Positions 20,519 to 29,553 are shown, numbered from the stretch's first letter. The stretch: DNA of 32,000 nucleotides from Puniceicoccaceae bacterium Marseille-Q1082 (GCA_904424815.1 CAJGBI010000001.1:899083-931082), one strand, 5' to 3'. Numbers and translations are program-made. The notes: generated by a model from the letters alone, not told the origin.

Positions 20519-21583
20519 ATGAAATATCCCCTTAAGGAAATCGTAAAACTTTTCGACAATCCGGAAGTTTCGGGCGACGACGGCGTAGAGCTCTCGGCGA
20601 TAGCCGCCATAGACCGCGCCAAGCCCTCCGACCTGACTTTTCTGGGCAACAAAAAATACGCCCACCTCGTGCCCTCAACGGGCGCCGGAGCCATTCTCCT
20701 GCCCCGCGACTACGCCGGAGAGCTCCCAAAAAATTCAACAGTAGTGAGGGTTGACAACCCGTCGGCGGAACTCGCAAAAATCGGCGCCATAATTGAAAAG
20801 GCACTGTGGCCCGAAATCAAGCCGTCGACGCACCCGACGGCGGCAATAGACCCCTCCGCGAAAATCGGCAAAAACGTGTTCATAGGCCCCAACGTCTCGG
20901 TTTGCGAGGGCGCGGAAATCGCCGACGGGGCTGTATTGCAGGGCAACAACTATGTTGGGAGGTTCGCAAGAATCGGCGAAAAGGCGTTTCTCATGCCCAA
21001 TTCGGTGGTGATGGACTATTGCGAGGTGGGCAAAAATTCGCGCCTCCAGCCCGGCGCCGTAATCGGCTCCGACGGGTACGGGTACGAATTTGTAAACGGC
21101 GTGCATGTCAAAATTCCGCAGGTCGGCAAAGTTGTTGTGGAAGACGATGTGGAAATTGGCGCCAACACCTGCATAGACAGGGCGCGCTTCGACAAAACCA
21201 TAGTCGGCGCGGGCACGAAAGTTGACAACCTCGTCCAAATAGCGCACAACGTGGAAATCGGCAAGGGGGCTCTGCTTGTATCGCAGGTGGGAATTTCCGG
21301 AAGCACAAAGATAGGCAACTACGCCGTTCTCGGCGGACAGGTCGGTGTCGCGGGGCACCTGCACATAGGCGACGGCGCGATGATAGGCGGCCAAAGCGGA
21401 GTAAACGGAGATATTCCGCCAAAATCCTACATGCGCGGCACCCCGCCCCGCCCCTACCTGAAAGCGCACAAGATAGAAATCCTAATAGGCCACCTCTCCG
21501 AGCTCTTTGACCGCGTAAAAGACTTGGAAAAGCGTCTTGGCATATCCAAAAAAACTTTCGGCTCAACCCGCGGCAGCCATTAG
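20519..21583 (+). CDS. lpxD: UDP-3-O-acylglucosamine N-acyltransferase
   Basis: LpxD N-terminal domain (ELSAIAAIDRAKPSDLTFLGNKKY), then left-handed beta-helix hexapeptide repeats and a C-terminal helix. Confidence 0.9.
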   Translation: MKYPLKEIVKLFDNPEVSGDDGVELSAIAAIDRAKPSDLTFLGNKKYAHLVPSTGAGAILLPRDYAGELPKNSTVVRVDNPSAELAKIGAIIEKALWPEIKPSTHPTAAIDPSAKIGKNVFIGPNVSVCEGAEIADGAVLQGNNYVGRFARIGEKAFLMPNSVVMDYCEVGKNSRLQPGAVIGSDGYGYEFVNGVHVKIPQVGKVVVEDDVEIGANTCIDRARFDKTIVGAGTKVDNLVQIAHNVEIGKGALLVSQVGISGSTKIGNYAVLGGQVGVAGHLHIGDGAMIGGQSGVNGDIPPKSYMRGTPPRPYLKAHKIEILIGHLSELFDRVKDLEKRLGISKKTFGSTRGSH

Positions 21584-21642
21584 GGGGGGGCAAAGCGCGT
21601 TAGACGGCAACGCCGCTTCCACAAAAAAAGGCGCACAGAAAT

Positions 21643-21723
21643 GGGGGCGGCGGTGCCGCTCCCATTGAAGGGGGCGGCAGTACCACTTCCATAGAAGGGG
21701 GCGGCGGTGCCGCTTCCATAGAA
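21643..21723. repeat. 27-bp hairpin module in three tandem copies
   Basis: Copies at 21643-21669, 21670-21696 and 21697-21723, consensus GGGGGCGGCGGTGCCGCTTCCATAGAA. Each folds as GGGGGCGGC-NNN-GCCGCYYCC. A partial copy lies at about 21604-21621. Confidence 0.9.
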
Positions 21724-21910
21724 GGGGGCTGACGCCCCTTACGGGCGCAAGGTGCGCCAGCCATTGAAGGGCTGCGCCCTTACGAAGATTGGCTTCGCCA
21801 ATGCTTCTATCCCCTCCCCGTTCCCCACAAAAAACGAACCTCCCATAAGAGGTTCGTCAGCACTTCCGGAGTTCGTTCCGAAAACCAAAGGTGCCCGATT
21901 TGGCGCAATG
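21698..21910. repeat. Diverged copy A of the long structured repeat unit
   Basis: Aligns to the 196-bp units from GCGGC..GCCGCTTCCATAGAAGGGG through GATTTGGCGCAATG. It carries a 41-bp internal insertion (21742-21782) that duplicates the CCAT(A/T)GAAGGG...CCCTTAC hairpin and adds a GGCGCA-AGG-TGCGCC hairpin. Confidence 0.85.
21829..21856 (-). terminator. Intrinsic terminator-like hairpin in copy A
   Basis: On the minus strand, CGAACCTC-TTATGG-GAGGTTCG is followed by TTTTTT (plus-strand A-run 21829-21834). Confidence 0.5.
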
Positions 21911-21917
21911 AAAACGA
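21829..21917 (-). ncRNA. Hypothetical ~90-nt sRNA (model only)
   Basis: A minus-strand TAAAAT box (21929-21924) within the AT-rich palindrome would place a TSS near 21917. The RNA would contain a CCAAA-N9-TTTGG hairpin and end at the terminator hairpin plus U6 at 21856-21829. No homology or expression evidence. Confidence 0.2.
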
Positions 21918-21965
21918 AAGCTTATTTTATCCGAAGCGCAGCGAGGCTATAAAATAAGGCTTTCG
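21915..21965. other. AT-rich long palindrome (16 bp with a 1-nt bulge), possible bidirectional promoter or MITE-like insert
   Basis: CGAAAGCTTATTTTAT (21915-21930) pairs with ATAAAATAAGGCTTTCG (21949-21965) across an 18-nt spacer. The plus strand reads TTATCC (21927-21932)-N17-TAAAAT (21950-21955), and a mirrored TAAAAT lies on the minus strand. Confidence 0.4.
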
Positions 21966-22159
21966 GGAAGGATAAAATGCGATAGCATTTTACCCCGCAG
22001 GGGTGAGAACAGCGCGGATTGCGCGCAGCGCAACCAAGCGAGCGAATCCATTTTGGATGAAGAGCGAGGGCGGGCGGCAGGGCCGCTTCCATAGAAGGGG
22101 CTGACGTCCCTTACGAAGATTGGCTTCGCCAATGCTTCTATCCCCTTCCCGTTCCCCTC

Positions 22160-22190
22160 AAAAAAACGAACCTCCCACATGAGAGGTTCG
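22160..22190 (-). terminator. Intrinsic terminator-like hairpin in unit B
   Basis: On the minus strand, CGAACCTC-TCATGTGG-GAGGTTCG is followed by TTTTTTT (plus-strand A7 at 22160-22166). Confidence 0.55.
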
Positions 22191-22355
22191 TACACACTTC
22201 CGGAGTTCGTTCCGAAAAACCCCAGTTCCCCGATTTGGCGTAATGCTTTTGGATGAAGAGCGAGGGCGGGCGGCAGTGCCGCTTCCATAGAAGGGGCTGA
22301 CGCCCCTTACGAAGATTGGCTTCGCCAATGCTTCTATCCCCTCCCCGTTCCCCTC

Positions 22356-22386
22356 AAAAAAACGAACCTCCCACATGAGAGGTTCG
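22356..22386 (-). terminator. Intrinsic terminator-like hairpin in unit C; first canonical terminator downstream of fabD
   Basis: Same 8-bp stem and T7 tract as unit B. It lies about 170 nt downstream of the fabD stop on the minus strand. Confidence 0.55.
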
Positions 22387-22462
22387 TACACACTTCCGGA
22401 GTTCGTTCCGAAAAACCCCAGTTCCCCGATTTGGCGTAATGCTTTTGGATGAAGAGCGAGTA

Positions 22463-22524
22463 TTCGGGGAAAGCCGCCGGTGGGAGCGTACATTAGTACG
22501 TGACCAGTGGCGGCTTTCCCCGAA
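22463..22524. other. Long perfect hairpin (16-bp stem) with a nested 5-bp hairpin in its loop
   Basis: TTCGGGGAAAGCCGCC (22463-22478) pairs with GGCGGCTTTCCCCGAA (22509-22524). The 30-nt loop contains CGTAC-ATTA-GTACG (22487-22500). No U-tract on either strand. It lies 31 nt beyond the fabD stop. Confidence 0.85.
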
Positions 22525-22555
22525 ACGGAGCTATTCGCCAAAATCATTCGCCAAA

Positions 22556-23458
22556 TCAGAGGTCGGAATATTCTGAGATGGATTTTACGTTTAGGGACTT
22601 GTCAATTCTGCGCACCATTCCGGCGAGCACTCCGCCGGGACCGCATTCGTAGAACTGGTCTATGCCGAGTTTTGCGGCGTTGCGAACGCAATCCTCCCAG
22701 CGGACAGTGCTTACGACCTGCTTTACAAGGTTCTTTTTGATTTCGGACGGGTCGAATACCGCGTCTCCCGTGACGTTCGTAAAGACGGGTATGCGCGGGC
22801 TCTTGAATTCGATTCCCTCGAGATATTCGGCGAACGCCTTGCGGGCGGGCTCCATGAGGCGGCTGTGGTACGCGCCGGCGACTTTAAGCGGGACGACCAT
22901 CTTGAACGCCTTGCGCTCCTTTGCAGCCTCGACGGCGGCGGCAACCTTCGCCTCTTCGCCCGATATGACGACCTGCCCCGGACAGTTGACGTTCGACATG
23001 TCCACGTCGAATTCCCTGCAATATGCGGCGACATCTTCGGGGCTTCCTCCGATAAAGCTCGCCATGGCGCCTTTTGAGGCGTCGCAGGCCTCCTGCATCA
23101 GCCTGCCGCGCTCTGCGACGATTTTGAGGCCCGTTTCAAAGCTGAACGTACCCGCGAATGCGTGGGCGGTGAGCTCGCCGAGCGAGAGGCCGAGAGCCGT
23201 GGAAGGCTCGCCGAGAATCCCCTTTTGGCGCATGGCCTCGACGGCGGCAAATCCGTGCAAAAAGAGCGCCGGCTGGCAGACGCTCGTTTTCGTCAATTCC
23301 GACGACGGCCCCTCGAAGCAATATTTGGATAGCTTCATAGAGAGGGCGTCGTCGGCTCTGTCGAAGAGCTCTCTTACCGCCCCGCAGTTTTCGTACAGCG
23401 ACTTTGCCATTCCGACGCTTTGCGCGCCCTGACCCGAGAATAGTAATCCTGTTTTCAT
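22556..23458 (-). CDS. fabD: Malonyl-CoA:ACP transacylase
   Basis: LLFSGQGAQSVGM and the active-site region ALGLSLGELTAH. ATG at 23458 (MKTGLLF...) preferred over the 40-aa longer track ORF. Confidence 0.9.
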   Translation of the reverse strand: MKTGLLFSGQGAQSVGMAKSLYENCGAVRELFDRADDALSMKLSKYCFEGPSSELTKTSVCQPALFLHGFAAVEAMRQKGILGEPSTALGLSLGELTAHAFAGTFSFETGLKIVAERGRLMQEACDASKGAMASFIGGSPEDVAAYCREFDVDMSNVNCPGQVVISGEEAKVAAAVEAAKERKAFKMVVPLKVAGAYHSRLMEPARKAFAEYLEGIEFKSPRIPVFTNVTGDAVFDPSEIKKNLVKQVVSTVRWEDCVRNAAKLGIDQFYECGPGGVLAGMVRRIDKSLNVKSISEYSDL

Positions 23459-23474
23459 ATTGTATAGTTGTGGG

Positions 23475-24071
23475 TTAAAGTCTGGAAAGTTCGGCGGATA
23501 TCTGCGCGGAAAGCCTGCCGACGAGTTCGTTGACAGCGCTTGCGTAGCCCGCGTATCCGTCTTTTGAGGAAACTTCAAAGTTGAAATTTTTTACGACGCT
23601 CTTCGCCCCCCCGGGGAGGTCTATCTGCCACTTGCCTTGGAGGCGGACTTTTCCGCCGATTTCTCCCAGACATTCGTAGACGAATATTTTTAGCGAACAA
23701 GCCTTTTCGGGATTGGGGGAAACCGCCGGATACACGAAAACCGACGCCGCTGCGGAGGACTCTATGTTGACCGCCACCGCGCGCTCGATCCCGCTGTCCG
23801 GAAGCTCCGCCCACCTGTCGAATTCGGATATTTCGAGCGCGCCTCCGGAGCCCGCCGAGACGATCTGCGCGCGCGACATATACTGAGGCAGCTGTATCGG
23901 GAGCAAATTGGCGTCTAACTTCCCCGCTGCGGCCTTTTGCATCGGAACGGGAGATATGATATGGAACACCGTCGGATCCGTCGAAGGCGCGAGGAGGTCG
24001 GAGATGCATCCCGAGAGCGAGGCGGCGAACGCGAGCGCGGAGGCCGCAAGAGCTGTTCTTAAAAGTTTCAT
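23475..24071 (-). CDS. ABC-transport auxiliary lipoprotein (PqiC/YmbA, DUF330-like)
   Basis: Lipobox LSGC after a signal peptide. A ~200-aa protein immediately downstream of an MCE-domain gene. Confidence 0.75.
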   Translation of the reverse strand: MKLLRTALAASALAFAASLSGCISDLLAPSTDPTVFHIISPVPMQKAAAGKLDANLLPIQLPQYMSRAQIVSAGSGGALEISEFDRWAELPDSGIERAVAVNIESSAAASVFVYPAVSPNPEKACSLKIFVYECLGEIGGKVRLQGKWQIDLPGGAKSVVKNFNFEVSSKDGYAGYASAVNELVGRLSAQISAELSRL

Positions 24072-27204: not shown

Positions 27205-29553
27205 ATGCGATTTAAAACCTTTTTTTTAATCCTGCCGCTGCTTGCGCTGCAGTTTACGGGGCGCCTCGCCGCCGGAGGGGAAGGACTGTCGGGATTTTCC
27301 GAATTGGCGTTCATAAAGCGCAACGCCTTCGACCCAAACCACTATTATACGGAGTTCATAAACAGCTCGTGGCGGCCGGGCGGCGGAATTTTCATTCTGA
27401 ATTTGAAAGACGGAAGCCAGCGCGAATTGTTTCCGACGATGTCCGGCGGCGTATTCGGGAGGTTCGACATCTCTTTCGACGCGAAACGCATAGTGTTTTC
27501 ATACAAAAAATCCGCCGGAGAGGGATTCAGGATTTACTCCGCAAAAATCGACGGTTCCGGCCTCAAACAGCTGACTTTTCCCGAGCCGAACGAAGCCGAA
27601 ACCGCAAAGAAGTTCAAGCGCGGCGGATACCACAGCGGAACCGACGACATGGATCCGTGCTGGCTGCCCGACGGCGGCATAGCGTTCGTGTCTACGCGCC
27701 CGAGATACGGCGTGCTATGCGACCCTTCCGACGACCTCACTGTCGCGACAATGTACAGAATGGAGGCGGACGGCTCGGGCATGAAGCGGCTGTCCTACGG
27801 CGCGCTCAGCGAGAACTCCCCGTGCGTCCTGCCGGACGGCAGAATAATGTACACGCGGTGGGAATACGTGGACAAAGGGGCGTCCGCCGTAAAATGCCTG
27901 TGGGCCATGCGCCCCGACGGGACGGGATCCGCGGAAATTTACGGCAACGACATCGCCCTGCCCGTCACAATGATATTCGGGCGGCCAATGCCCGGCGGAA
28001 GGGGAAAGTATGTTTTCATCGGCGCCCCGCACTATCCGCAGGGGCCGAACGGGACGGTGATAACAGCCGACACGTCAAAAGGAACCCGCTCGGAATCCGC
28101 GATGCGCCATATCACGCCCGACGTGGAAATACGCGACGAAAGCGGCTACCATTTTAAAAAGGGCGGAAACTGGAAATTCGACCCGTCGGGAAAGTCGGGC
28201 AGGCTCTTCCGCGACCCCTATCCTATTTCGGACGGAGAATTTCTCGTGGCGATGAAGCCCGAGGGATACGCGTGGAACGACGCTGGCGGATACGAACTCG
28301 CGCTCCTCTCCTCCGACGGCTCCGCGCGGAGAATATACAGGGACGAAAAGTATTCCGCCTTCCAGCCCGTCCCGATAGCCCCGCGCCCGCTTCCGCCGGT
28401 TCTTCCGTCCGCCCCCGACGAAGGACTTGAACGCAGAAACCTCGCCGCCCTTCTGATAACCGACGTCTACGCGGGCCTCGAAAACGTCCCGCGCGGCGCG
28501 GCCAAATACGTCCGCGTCCTCGAGCAAGTCGCGCGGCCGTGGGGCGCAAACAGAATAGCAATGGGCGGCGAAAAGACCGAAGACGCCCACGGGCAGCAGC
28601 ACGCCGCGGTAAGCCGGTATACGCACTTGGGGCTGAAAGTCCAGCGCGGCGTGGCGGAAATCGAGCCCGACGGCAGCGCGTATTTTTTGGTTCCCGCCAA
28701 CCGCAACATATTTTTGCAGGTTTTGGACGAAAATTACATGGCGCTGCAAACCGAGCGTACTTTTGTAAACTACATGCCCGGGGAAATCAGGGGCTGCATC
28801 GGGTGCCACGAGGGCTCCTCCGAAACCCCGCAGCTGGCGAAATCCGCGCGGGTTCTCGCGCTGCGCAAGCCGCCTCAAAAACTGAAACCCCAGCGCGGGG
28901 AGGCGTCTGCCGAAAAGCTTTTCGACTACGCCGCGCAAATACAGCCGATTTTCGACGGGCGCTGCGTCTCATGCCACGGGCAAAACCGGCGCGAAAAGGG
29001 GCTCGACCTGCGCGGAACCCCGACGAAATTTTTCAGCGTCTCGTACGAATCGCTCGTCCCCGACTACGTTTGGCACGCGGGACTTCCAAAGGAGTGCGCC
29101 TTTGAAAGGGAGCGCGTCGGAATGACAAACATGTCTAAAAAAGACTACGCGAGGCTCGACCGGAGGCTGCTCGGCAAAATCATATCCGAAATATTCCAAA
29201 AGGACAACAACGTCGAGTATCTGCCCGCTGGAAGCCTTGGGGCGCGGACGAGCGTTTTGATAGGCGCGTTCGCTCCCGAAGCCGCGGACATAAGGGACGC
29301 GCGCGACGCCGCGCGCGCGCGGGAGCTCGCAAAAATCCACAAAAACATAAGGCTTTCCGACGCCGAAATTCTCGCGCTATCCAACTGGATAGACGCCAAC
29401 TGCCAGTTCCATCCGTCCTATTGGGGCGCGAAAAATCTGAAATACAAAAACGCCCCGCAATTCAGGCCGAAACTCGGTTTCGACGAGGCTATTTCCGAAA
29501 CACCCCCGAAAGGGCTGGAATTTTCGCCCGCGCGAACCGTAAAACTTAAATAG
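27205..29553 (+). CDS. Secreted TolB/HzsA-like beta-propeller protein fused to two c-type haem sites, with a PSCyt1-like C-terminal module
   Basis: Signal peptide MRFKTFFLILPLLALQF at the internal ATG 27205. Propeller-like repeats: WLPDGGIAFVS, VLPDGRIMYTRWEYVDK and MRPDGTGSAEIYG. CxxCH motifs at nt 28795-28809 (CIGCH) and 28963-28977 (CVSCH). The second sits in IFDGRCVSCHG...KGLDLRG...LSDAEILALSNWID, which resembles the Planctomycete cytochrome c domain. Confidence 0.8.
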   Translation: MRFKTFFLILPLLALQFTGRLAAGGEGLSGFSELAFIKRNAFDPNHYYTEFINSSWRPGGGIFILNLKDGSQRELFPTMSGGVFGRFDISFDAKRIVFSYKKSAGEGFRIYSAKIDGSGLKQLTFPEPNEAETAKKFKRGGYHSGTDDMDPCWLPDGGIAFVSTRPRYGVLCDPSDDLTVATMYRMEADGSGMKRLSYGALSENSPCVLPDGRIMYTRWEYVDKGASAVKCLWAMRPDGTGSAEIYGNDIALPVTMIFGRPMPGGRGKYVFIGAPHYPQGPNGTVITADTSKGTRSESAMRHITPDVEIRDESGYHFKKGGNWKFDPSGKSGRLFRDPYPISDGEFLVAMKPEGYAWNDAGGYELALLSSDGSARRIYRDEKYSAFQPVPIAPRPLPPVLPSAPDEGLERRNLAALLITDVYAGLENVPRGAAKYVRVLEQVARPWGANRIAMGGEKTEDAHGQQHAAVSRYTHLGLKVQRGVAEIEPDGSAYFLVPANRNIFLQVLDENYMALQTERTFVNYMPGEIRGCIGCHEGSSETPQLAKSARVLALRKPPQKLKPQRGEASAEKLFDYAAQIQPIFDGRCVSCHGQNRREKGLDLRGTPTKFFSVSYESLVPDYVWHAGLPKECAFERERVGMTNMSKKDYARLDRRLLGKIISEIFQKDNNVEYLPAGSLGARTSVLIGAFAPEAADIRDARDAARARELAKIHKNIRLSDAEILALSNWIDANCQFHPSYWGAKNLKYKNAPQFRPKLGFDEAISETPPKGLEFSPARTVKLK

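Follow-up and report, generated by a model that had tools for sequence, protein, structure and literature searches.

Mosaic intergenic repeats of gut Opitutales, likely gene-end terminator cassettes, in the lpxD-fabD gap of a Puniceicoccaceae genome

What fills the ~970 bp between the converging genes lpxD and fabD of Puniceicoccaceae bacterium Marseille-Q1082? We examined this gap in a stretch of 32,000 nucleotides (GCA_904424815.1, CAJGBI010000001.1:899083-931082; hereafter the window), in which an earlier note had drawn attention to two near-identical tandem units of 196 bp and had proposed that they were candidate structured-RNA genes or a terminator array. The gap very probably consists of modules of a lineage-specific, dispersed, mosaic family of intergenic repeats of gut Opitutales, likely a gene-end terminator cassette. 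Copies of the family are dispersed among intergenic sites, their modules are shuffled, their hairpins are conserved through compensatory changes, their orientation follows genes and their composition varies between strains.

Tandem units, their dispersal and their modules

Tandem Repeats Finder reported positions 22051-22460 as a tandem array (period 196, 2.1 copies, 98% matches, score 799), and a repeat search gave 98% identity between unit B (22051-22246) and unit C (22247-22442), bearing out the tandem units of the earlier note. Its four hairpins also read exactly as described, namely H0 (22074-22086), H1 (22095-22112), H2 (22115-22138) and H3 (22167-22190) in unit B coordinates. B and C differ at three positions: one lies in the loop of H0 (22081), one in the stem of H1 (22107, where G-C becomes G-T) and one in the C-rich tract. 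The first 18 nt of the unit (TTTTGGATGAAGAGCGAG) are indeed present a third time at 22443-22460; rather than opening a third unit, they form the left arm of a 130-nt palindrome at 22428-22558. This palindrome had been overlooked, together with a 27-bp sub-repeat (21643-21729) and a diverged unit, A, at 21699-21910, which is ~88% identical and carries an insertion. The unit itself starts inside the left arm of a palindrome, with the hairpin cluster following 'GAGCGAG', and the same junction is found at other loci. The gap is built almost wholly of such repeat modules.

To look for copies elsewhere, species-representative genomes were scanned with the pattern CCATWRAAGGGG-N4-10-CCCCTTACG, which covers the H1 region and its linkers. 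At least 92 stretches matched, nearly all in a handful of Opitutales/Merdousia metagenome-assembled genomes (MAGs); among the matches listed, two lay in MAGs of other phyla, evidently by chance. The repeat-bearing MAGs carry the label Candidatus Merdousia, and a literature search found no published work on repeats in Merdousia. A covariance model, R1, of the 58-nt core of the unit (H1 and H2 with their linkers) found three full copies and one partial one in the window, each on the plus strand, and 191 copies in 644 kb of fetched loci with their flanks (given below as L numbers), with none in five loci from relatives without the repeat. Core copies numbered at least 45 in MAG11642, at least 33 in HGM23550 and at least 19 in UBA6410. 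By BLAST, every part of the gap from ~21640 to 22558 recurs 20-120 times in those loci, among them the palindrome next to fabD and the 140 bp that separate units A and B, and no other copy of the unit was found in the 32-kb window outside the gap. With dozens of core copies at unrelated intergenic sites, the units are not RNA genes specific to this locus.

The copies are also concentrated where assemblies stop. Among the pattern matches listed, 74 of 112 (66%) lay less than 1 kb from a contig end, compared with 14.5% expected, a pattern characteristic of repeats on which short-read assemblies break. The arrays, with two-thirds of copies at contig ends, are the main reason for the fragmented assemblies of these organisms.

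Three contigs classified as viral in IMG/VR (L108:8654-8711, L109 and L110) also match R1, two of them belonging to the same uncultivated viral genome (UViG); the core copy of L108 was read in the sequence. These contigs may be pieces of chromosome wrongly classed as viral, or a prophage in an Opitutales host; they yielded no evidence on a mobilising element.

Similarity between unit copies breaks at fixed junctions, and reading many copies gave one consistent order of modules. In window orientation, the grammar is (GC hairpin + CCATWGAA)n, H1 (GGGGN...NCCCC), TTACG, H2, CTATCCCC, a C-rich/A-run spacer, H3, a tail (...CTTCCGRAGTTCGTTC...) and the junction motif GATTTGGCGCAATG, followed either by the long palindrome (other end CCAAAAGCATTCGCCAAATC) or by an AT-rich insert module. 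The core consists of two hairpins, CCATWGAA-H1-TTACG-H2-CTATCCCC, each of 14-26 nt, and the 196-bp unit is a single turn of this grammar. Its modules are laid out in the gap as follows (the terminator hairpins are listed further below).

21600-21729, plus strand: array of the 27-bp sub-repeat, GGCGGC-NNN-GCCGC + TTCCATWGAA; one degenerate copy, then 3.2 copies (Tandem Repeats Finder 21643-21729, period 27)
21714-21758, plus strand: partial core, H1 with an extra GC hairpin (GGCGCAAGGTGCGCC); R1 19.6 bits, E = 0.0014
21759-21814, plus strand: core copy A, CCATTGAA-H1-TTACG-H2-CTATCCCC; R1 66.9 bits
21897-21910, plus strand: junction motif GATTTGGCGCAATG, the joining point of alternative downstream modules
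21911-22050, plus strand: insert module AAAACGAAAGCTTATTTTATCC..., an AT-rich hairpin module, found at ~20 other loci and always after GATTTGGCGCAATG
22051-22246, plus strand: unit B, with palindrome left-arm fragment, H0, core (22087-22145; R1 74.7 bits), C-rich/A-run spacer, H3, tail and junction motif
22247-22442, plus strand: unit C, of the same anatomy as unit B; core 22283-22341 (R1 79.8 bits)
22428-22558, no strand assigned: long palindrome module of 130 nt, with 20-nt inverted ends GATTTGGCGTAATGCTTTTGG and CCAAAATCATTCGCCAAATC; its last bases overlap the fabD stop

The junction motif GATTTGGCGCAATG marks where modules are joined. With two substitutions allowed, 78 matches were listed in the loci and the window, of which ~60 continue in one of the two ways given above; the remainder are chance or degenerate matches. 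The insert module, which has a longer version in other strains, contains the gap's single sigma-70-like match (minus strand, 21953-21924, TTTATA-18-TAAAAT) and might carry an outward-facing promoter. The palindrome at 22428-22558 folds at -71.6 kcal/mol (z = -11), and three sequence variants of the module give the same 130-nt hairpin, at -69 to -74 kcal/mol and z of -7 to -12. Its conserved right end is present at 30 or more loci, and terminal inverted repeats, with ends GATTTGGCGYAATGMTTTTGG and CCAAAAKCATTCGCCAAATC, are confined to this module. Arrays of two units followed by the palindrome occur at other loci of HGM23550 as well (L017, L080). More distant MAGs, UBA6410 among them, have the core alone, followed by other lineage-specific sequence.

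Three further observations concern what adjoins the core. At seven UBA6410 loci (L020, L027, L037, L039, L057, L099 and L102) the core is followed by another conserved module (...GTACGCACRCCATCGC...), often with runs of N, which points to a second lineage-specific repeat attached to the same core. A family of open reading frames (ORFs) of up to ~650 aa also adjoins core copies (L025:749-2413 and seven related; L012, L019, L025, L060, L069, L076, L087); its longest members reach ~500-650 aa, and the one that was scanned had no Pfam match. L025, L060 and L069 share an AT-rich stretch (...TATTTA...TTGGTTATATRCCAA) just 3' of the core.

Hairpin conservation and the question of strand

The earlier note had called the hairpins conserved, and a covariation analysis agreed. 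Among 89 distinct core copies, 98.4% of cells were paired and 7 of the 13 pairs showed changes on both sides; none of 500 shuffles reached the observed values, and sliding the partners abolished the signal. Covariation was found in H2, which lay outside the constraint of the search pattern, and was strong in its outer stem, where the pairs switch type: one position is AU in 45 copies, GC in 24 and CG in 19, and the next is AU in 46 and CG in 42. A model-based alignment of 150 R1 matches gave the same picture. At least ten different versions of H2 are visible, and the independent compensatory events are fewer than the cell counts suggest.

The pairs carry no signal of which strand is transcribed. 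The G-T pair at 22107 had been taken to imply a plus-strand RNA; it is one recent mutation, and among 1155 paired cells there were only five wobbles compatible with the plus strand versus two compatible with the minus strand. Variants of H3 have wobbles on either strand. Since wobbles are nearly absent, no RNA strand is favoured, which fits palindromes selected at the level of DNA or on both strands. On either strand the unit folds somewhat better than its shuffled controls do (z of -3.5 and -3.2), as expected of any hairpin-rich sequence. An alternative helix, ATAGAAG/CTTCTAT, which the earlier note had proposed as the closing stem of a three-way junction, was also tried and rejected: it was paired in 74% of cells with no changes on both sides, equal to shuffled controls, and was broken in about half of the copies because the H2 outer stem and the A/T polymorphism of CCATWGAA change without compensation.

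These data bear on the idea that each unit is an independent small-RNA gene with its own promoter, ending at H3 on the minus strand or folding H0-H2 on the plus strand. The folding of both strands, the covariation of H2 and the terminator that closes each unit would all suit such genes. Against them stand the hundreds of copies at unrelated gene ends and the scarcity of wobbles (7 of 1155 cells), which is unlike typical structured RNAs. Nor did the unit match a known RNA family. The Rfam search called for in the earlier note gave no match at the gathering score in the whole window, and a permissive search of the gap returned noise, its best match being a eukaryotic microRNA model (E 0.008, 26.7 bits vs a gathering score of 98). 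No conserved promoter accompanies the unit, the single sigma-70-like match lying outside it in the insert module. Together with its placement relative to genes, described below, this leaves tandem small-RNA genes very unlikely.

Position at gene ends

Each unit contains a predicted intrinsic terminator, directed against transcripts that enter from the fabD side:

21833-21858, minus strand: terminator hairpin of unit A, followed by a T-run, from the terminator scan
22160-22191, minus strand: H3 terminator of unit B, with a stem of 11 bp, a loop of 4 nt and then TTTTTT
22356-22387, minus strand: H3 terminator of unit C, the first terminator reached by transcripts leaving fabD

H3 preceded by A7 had been recognised as a textbook minus-strand intrinsic terminator, and the terminator scan concurred: no other terminator-like site in the window is as strong as H3 with its minus-strand T6-7. 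The scan found only slightly more sites in the window than in shuffled sequence, and ordinary hairpin and T-run sites occur at some other gene ends, e.g., 29649-29632. Of the two readings offered at the outset, the terminator array is therefore partly borne out, each unit having a predicted minus-strand terminator, and the RNA genes are not.

The comparison with relatives is consistent with a role at this position. In the species with an 89%-identical LpxD, lpxR on the minus strand comes ~120-160 bp after lpxD, with only a plain bidirectional terminator in between; the repeat is absent downstream of lpxD both there and in 'Coraliomargarita sp. CAG:312'. The cassette thus occupies the place of a simple terminator. 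The earlier note had found a non-coding gap of about 1 kb odd for so compact a housekeeping region; accumulation of repeats explains its length. Gene order also breaks exactly at the lpxD 3' end (L103-L107), the next gene being fabD (minus strand) here, lpxR (minus strand) elsewhere, or an unannotated plus-strand gene in CAG:312.

Orientation relative to genes was analysed with a simple gene caller written for this purpose. On the terminator/palindrome side, 30 of 34 genes point into the element (binomial estimate p ~3e-6), and on the hairpin-cluster side 53 of 85 do so. Of the complete gaps, 14 were convergent, 10 tandem (co-directional) and one divergent, and seven of eight core-only copies followed a co-oriented gene at a distance of no more than 60 nt. 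Coding sequence adjoins the conserved right end, ...GCCAAATC(A), and the right-hand gene has its stop codon in the last 46 nt of the element at ~18 of 22 loci. The stops recur at offsets of -2 (TCA), -27 (CTA) and -46 (TTA), so that the element supplies stops in all three frames; in the window, the TGA of fabD is the TCA at the end of the element. The last codons, together with the stop, are often encoded by the element (right ends in L011, L067, L076, L078, L100 and others; window 22530-22558), and many proteins of these genomes would accordingly have repeat-derived C-terminal tails. An element that follows its neighbouring gene in orientation and contains that gene's stop would be transcribed as a 3' untranslated region, which further argues against independent small-RNA genes.

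From its sequence, we propose that the element functions as a cassette whose terminator would end transcripts of the gene on the palindrome side, here fabD. On the other strand, the stable hairpins and the C-rich tract could buffer, stabilise or help to terminate transcripts of the converging gene, here those of the lpxD operon.

Several points weigh against a gene-end terminator cassette. Termination and 3'-end protection are both predicted from sequence alone, and no U-run follows the plus-strand hairpins, which makes an effect on lpxD transcripts speculative. Some loci are orthologous between MAGs, so that the counts are not fully independent and p ~3e-6 overstates their independence, and the orientation statistics depend on a crude gene caller. 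The orientation bias could also arise from selection against insertions that disrupt promoters, with no positive function. Finally, the copy number of B and C rests on one assembly, most public assemblies of this species breaking inside the gap.

There are consequences for annotation. 'Empty' gaps of ~0.2-1 kb in gut MAGs of Merdousia/Opitutales are repeat arrays and neither missing genes nor new RNA genes, and the arrays supply the stop and the predicted terminator of many genes.

Strain variation, related repeats and neighbouring genes

The gap varies between assemblies that encode the same proteins. Those with identical LpxD have gaps of 438-972 bp, with one to three units, one to five sub-repeats, and the insert present or absent; assemblies with identical LpxD or FabD also differ in inserts and palindrome variants. 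Of the contigs with identical FabD that end in the gap, the longest has a single unit and a different palindrome variant at this locus. Orthologous gene ends in different species keep the element with differing internal modules, which suggests recombination or gene conversion among dispersed copies. Orthologous ends with different palindrome variants are seen in L067 and L100, L071 and L088, and L015 and L079. The duplication of B and C (98.5% identical) is most simply a recent local duplication or homogenisation event, which could have occurred by unequal recombination or gene conversion between modules, and arrays in general would grow, shrink and swap modules in the same ways. Arrays that differ between strains with identical flanking proteins could be used to tell strains apart and may indicate where rearrangement has taken place.

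Because so many assemblies end here, we considered whether the B/C duplication could be an artefact, in which two strain variants of one unit, or reads from other copies, had been merged. Nine of ten contigs with identical FabD end inside the gap, 22-505 bp past the stop, as do six of ten with identical LpxD; one assembly links lpxD to rpsB through the repeat, and B and C differ by only three bases. Set against this, an independent assembly (L002) likewise shows a pair of tandem units here, two-unit arrays are present at other loci of a related MAG, and the junction GGCGTAATGC-TTTTGGATGAAGAGCGAG-GGCGG is of a recurrent type. An artefact is thus an unlikely explanation. On contig ERZ27265510 k113_127049 (L001:5066-5770), which encodes an identical LpxD, the array continues via the palindrome into rpsB-tsf and not into fabD; either the genome is truly rearranged at the repeat or the assembly is chimeric.

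How the family spread bears on whether it benefits its host. A purely selfish element, non-autonomous and of the type of repetitive extragenic palindromes (REPs) mobilised by RAYT or of miniature transposable elements with inverted repeats (MITEs), would owe its location to tolerated insertions. Its high copy number in a restricted lineage, the 20-nt inverted ends of the palindrome module, hairpins tagged as in REPs (PMC3733652), insertions overlapping the last codons of genes and strain-level variability would all accord with such an origin. Traces of transposition were sought in the loci. Clustering of 476 ORFs gave no transposase among the multi-copy ORFs near copies, only housekeeping paralogues or orthologues; no ORF in ~640 kb of flanking DNA matched a loose HUH...Y motif; no target-site duplication was evident at the junctions listed, where the left end is nearly always joined to another module; and no insertion sequence (IS) element with palindrome-type ends was seen. 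The retention of elements at orthologous ends with differing modules is better accounted for by recombination and maintenance than by ongoing transposition. We therefore regard a purely selfish element as possible though not the favoured explanation; it is compatible with a gene-end cassette and differs from it only on host benefit. The first spread may have occurred by REP/RAYT-like single-strand transposition, by mobilisation based on the terminal inverted repeats, or by recombination alone.

Comparison with known systems indicates that this is a new family of REP-, BIME- (bacterial interspersed mosaic element) and NIME- (neisserial intergenic mosaic element) like mosaic repeats with a built-in intrinsic terminator, a kind of repeat already ordinary in bacteria. 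REPs are tagged palindromes, mostly located after genes and often arranged as head-to-head dimers of unlike hairpins (PMC3733652); they are sometimes inserted in longer palindromes, and GTAG REPs abound in Opitutus terrae (PMC3733652, Di Nocera et al. 2013). Like REPs and BIMEs, the present repeats comprise short, GC-rich, imperfect palindromes with a tetranucleotide tag beside the stem; they are extragenic, present in high copy number and mostly located after genes, between convergent or co-directional ORFs. They also form outward-tagged dimers, often of two different hairpins, in clusters whose size varies by strain, and roles in termination and mRNA stabilisation have been proposed for both. 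The core, with its two different hairpins and outward ATAG/ATTG tags, would resemble a head-to-head dimer of REP-type palindromes. At its left it bears the conserved tag ATAG/ATTG and at its right CTAT (which reads ATAG on the opposite strand), with no GTAG or CGTC in the consensus, which places the family outside the REP superfamilies as defined. Unlike REPs and BIMEs, moreover, the two core hairpins are unrelated in sequence, the composite includes a canonical terminator and a 130-nt palindrome, and no RAYT gene was seen near copies.

NIMEs consist of RS modules separated by 20-bp dRS3 repeats, in arrays that vary between strains (Bentley et al. 2007, PMC1797815). The Opitutales repeat is similar in that many alternative modules are joined at short conserved junctions, length and content vary by strain, and arrays coincide with recombination and rearrangement. 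It differs in its junction motifs (CCATWGAA, TTACG, CTATCCCC and GATTTGGCGCAATG) and its built-in terminator, and no link to surface-antigen genes or to a phage recombinase has been shown for it. The palindrome module is reminiscent of Correia elements (CREE/NEMIS) and similar MITEs, being ~130 bp long with inverted ends and one long hairpin, adjoining genes and expected to be co-transcribed with them; the long double-stranded RNA stem that it would form is a candidate substrate of RNase III. Unlike Correia elements, it shows no target-site duplication, its 20-nt ends are unrelated in sequence, and it is almost always attached to other modules and seldom alone.

BOX elements of Streptococcus pneumoniae are built as boxA-boxB(n)-boxC modules. 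The present family is likewise modular and intergenic, and a short sub-repeat inside it (the 27-bp H0 unit) varies in number, yet its sequence is unrelated, it belongs to a different phylum and it includes a terminator. That terminator has the form of ordinary intrinsic ones, H3 having an 11-bp GC-containing stem, a 4-nt loop and 6-7 T on the strand of the upstream gene; it differs in being part of a repeated cassette copied to many gene ends rather than evolved locally. The family thus offers a verrucomicrobial example of REP/NIME-like mosaic repeats with a terminator, useful for comparing how such repeats originate and are maintained, and does not represent a new kind of system.

A bolder proposal, which we put forward tentatively and consider doubtful, is that the 58-nt core is not simply selfish DNA in decay but is specifically recognised: the ATAG tag would define a third REP-like class with a dedicated protein, and core, terminator and palindrome would together form a portable gene-end cassette. 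It is prompted by the invariant single-stranded segments CCATWGAA, TTACG and CTATCCCC and by compensatory changes across several Opitutales species. The protein might then be a RAYT-like enzyme or an RNA- or DNA-binding factor, the lineage would rely on a portable cassette rather than on terminators evolved one at a time, and recombination between strains' arrays and disruption of gene order would be driven by it.

The genes that flank the gap are convergent, as the earlier note had it, and Pfam matches identify both:

20519-21583, plus strand: lpxD, with Pfam LpxD and Hexapep matches; its TAG stop lies within CCATTAG-GGGGGGG, abutting the repeat array
22556-23458, minus strand: fabD-like acyltransferase (Pfam Acyl_transf_1), 300 aa in public assemblies, the exact protein occurring on 24 contigs; its stop codon is TCA (reverse complement of TGA) at 22556-22558

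The LpxD protein shares 77% identity with its counterpart in CAG:312 and with proteins of Opitutales MAGs, and across lpxD the window's DNA matches a contig of HGM23550, an Opitutales MAG, at 92.6% identity; this makes the source an uncultured Opitutales bacterium (Verrucomicrobiota) of the gut. The longest fabD ORF (22556-23578) would give 340 aa from a TTG start and overlap the upstream ABC_trans_aux gene by ~100 nt; public gene calls give 300 aa (ATG at 23458) or 284 aa.

Between these genes, the units appear to be non-coding, as had been argued. Minus-strand ORFs of 113 and 129 aa do exist (21947-22288 and 22158-22547) and could in principle encode small proteins. No ORF across the units has a Pfam match, their third-position GC is 0.58 compared with 0.66-0.79 in real genes of the window, the 196-bp period shifts the frame from one unit to the next, and the sequence is that of a dispersed non-coding repeat; the probability that small proteins are encoded is negligible. 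No tRNA or tmRNA genes were found in the window. An array of attC or CRISPR type is not supported either, the sub-repeats being contiguous without spacers and the neighbourhood having no integrase or cas genes. Elsewhere in the window, at 29296-29321, a coding region contains ~12 dinucleotide units in a (CG)n-like tract, a potential site of Z-DNA formation or slippage.

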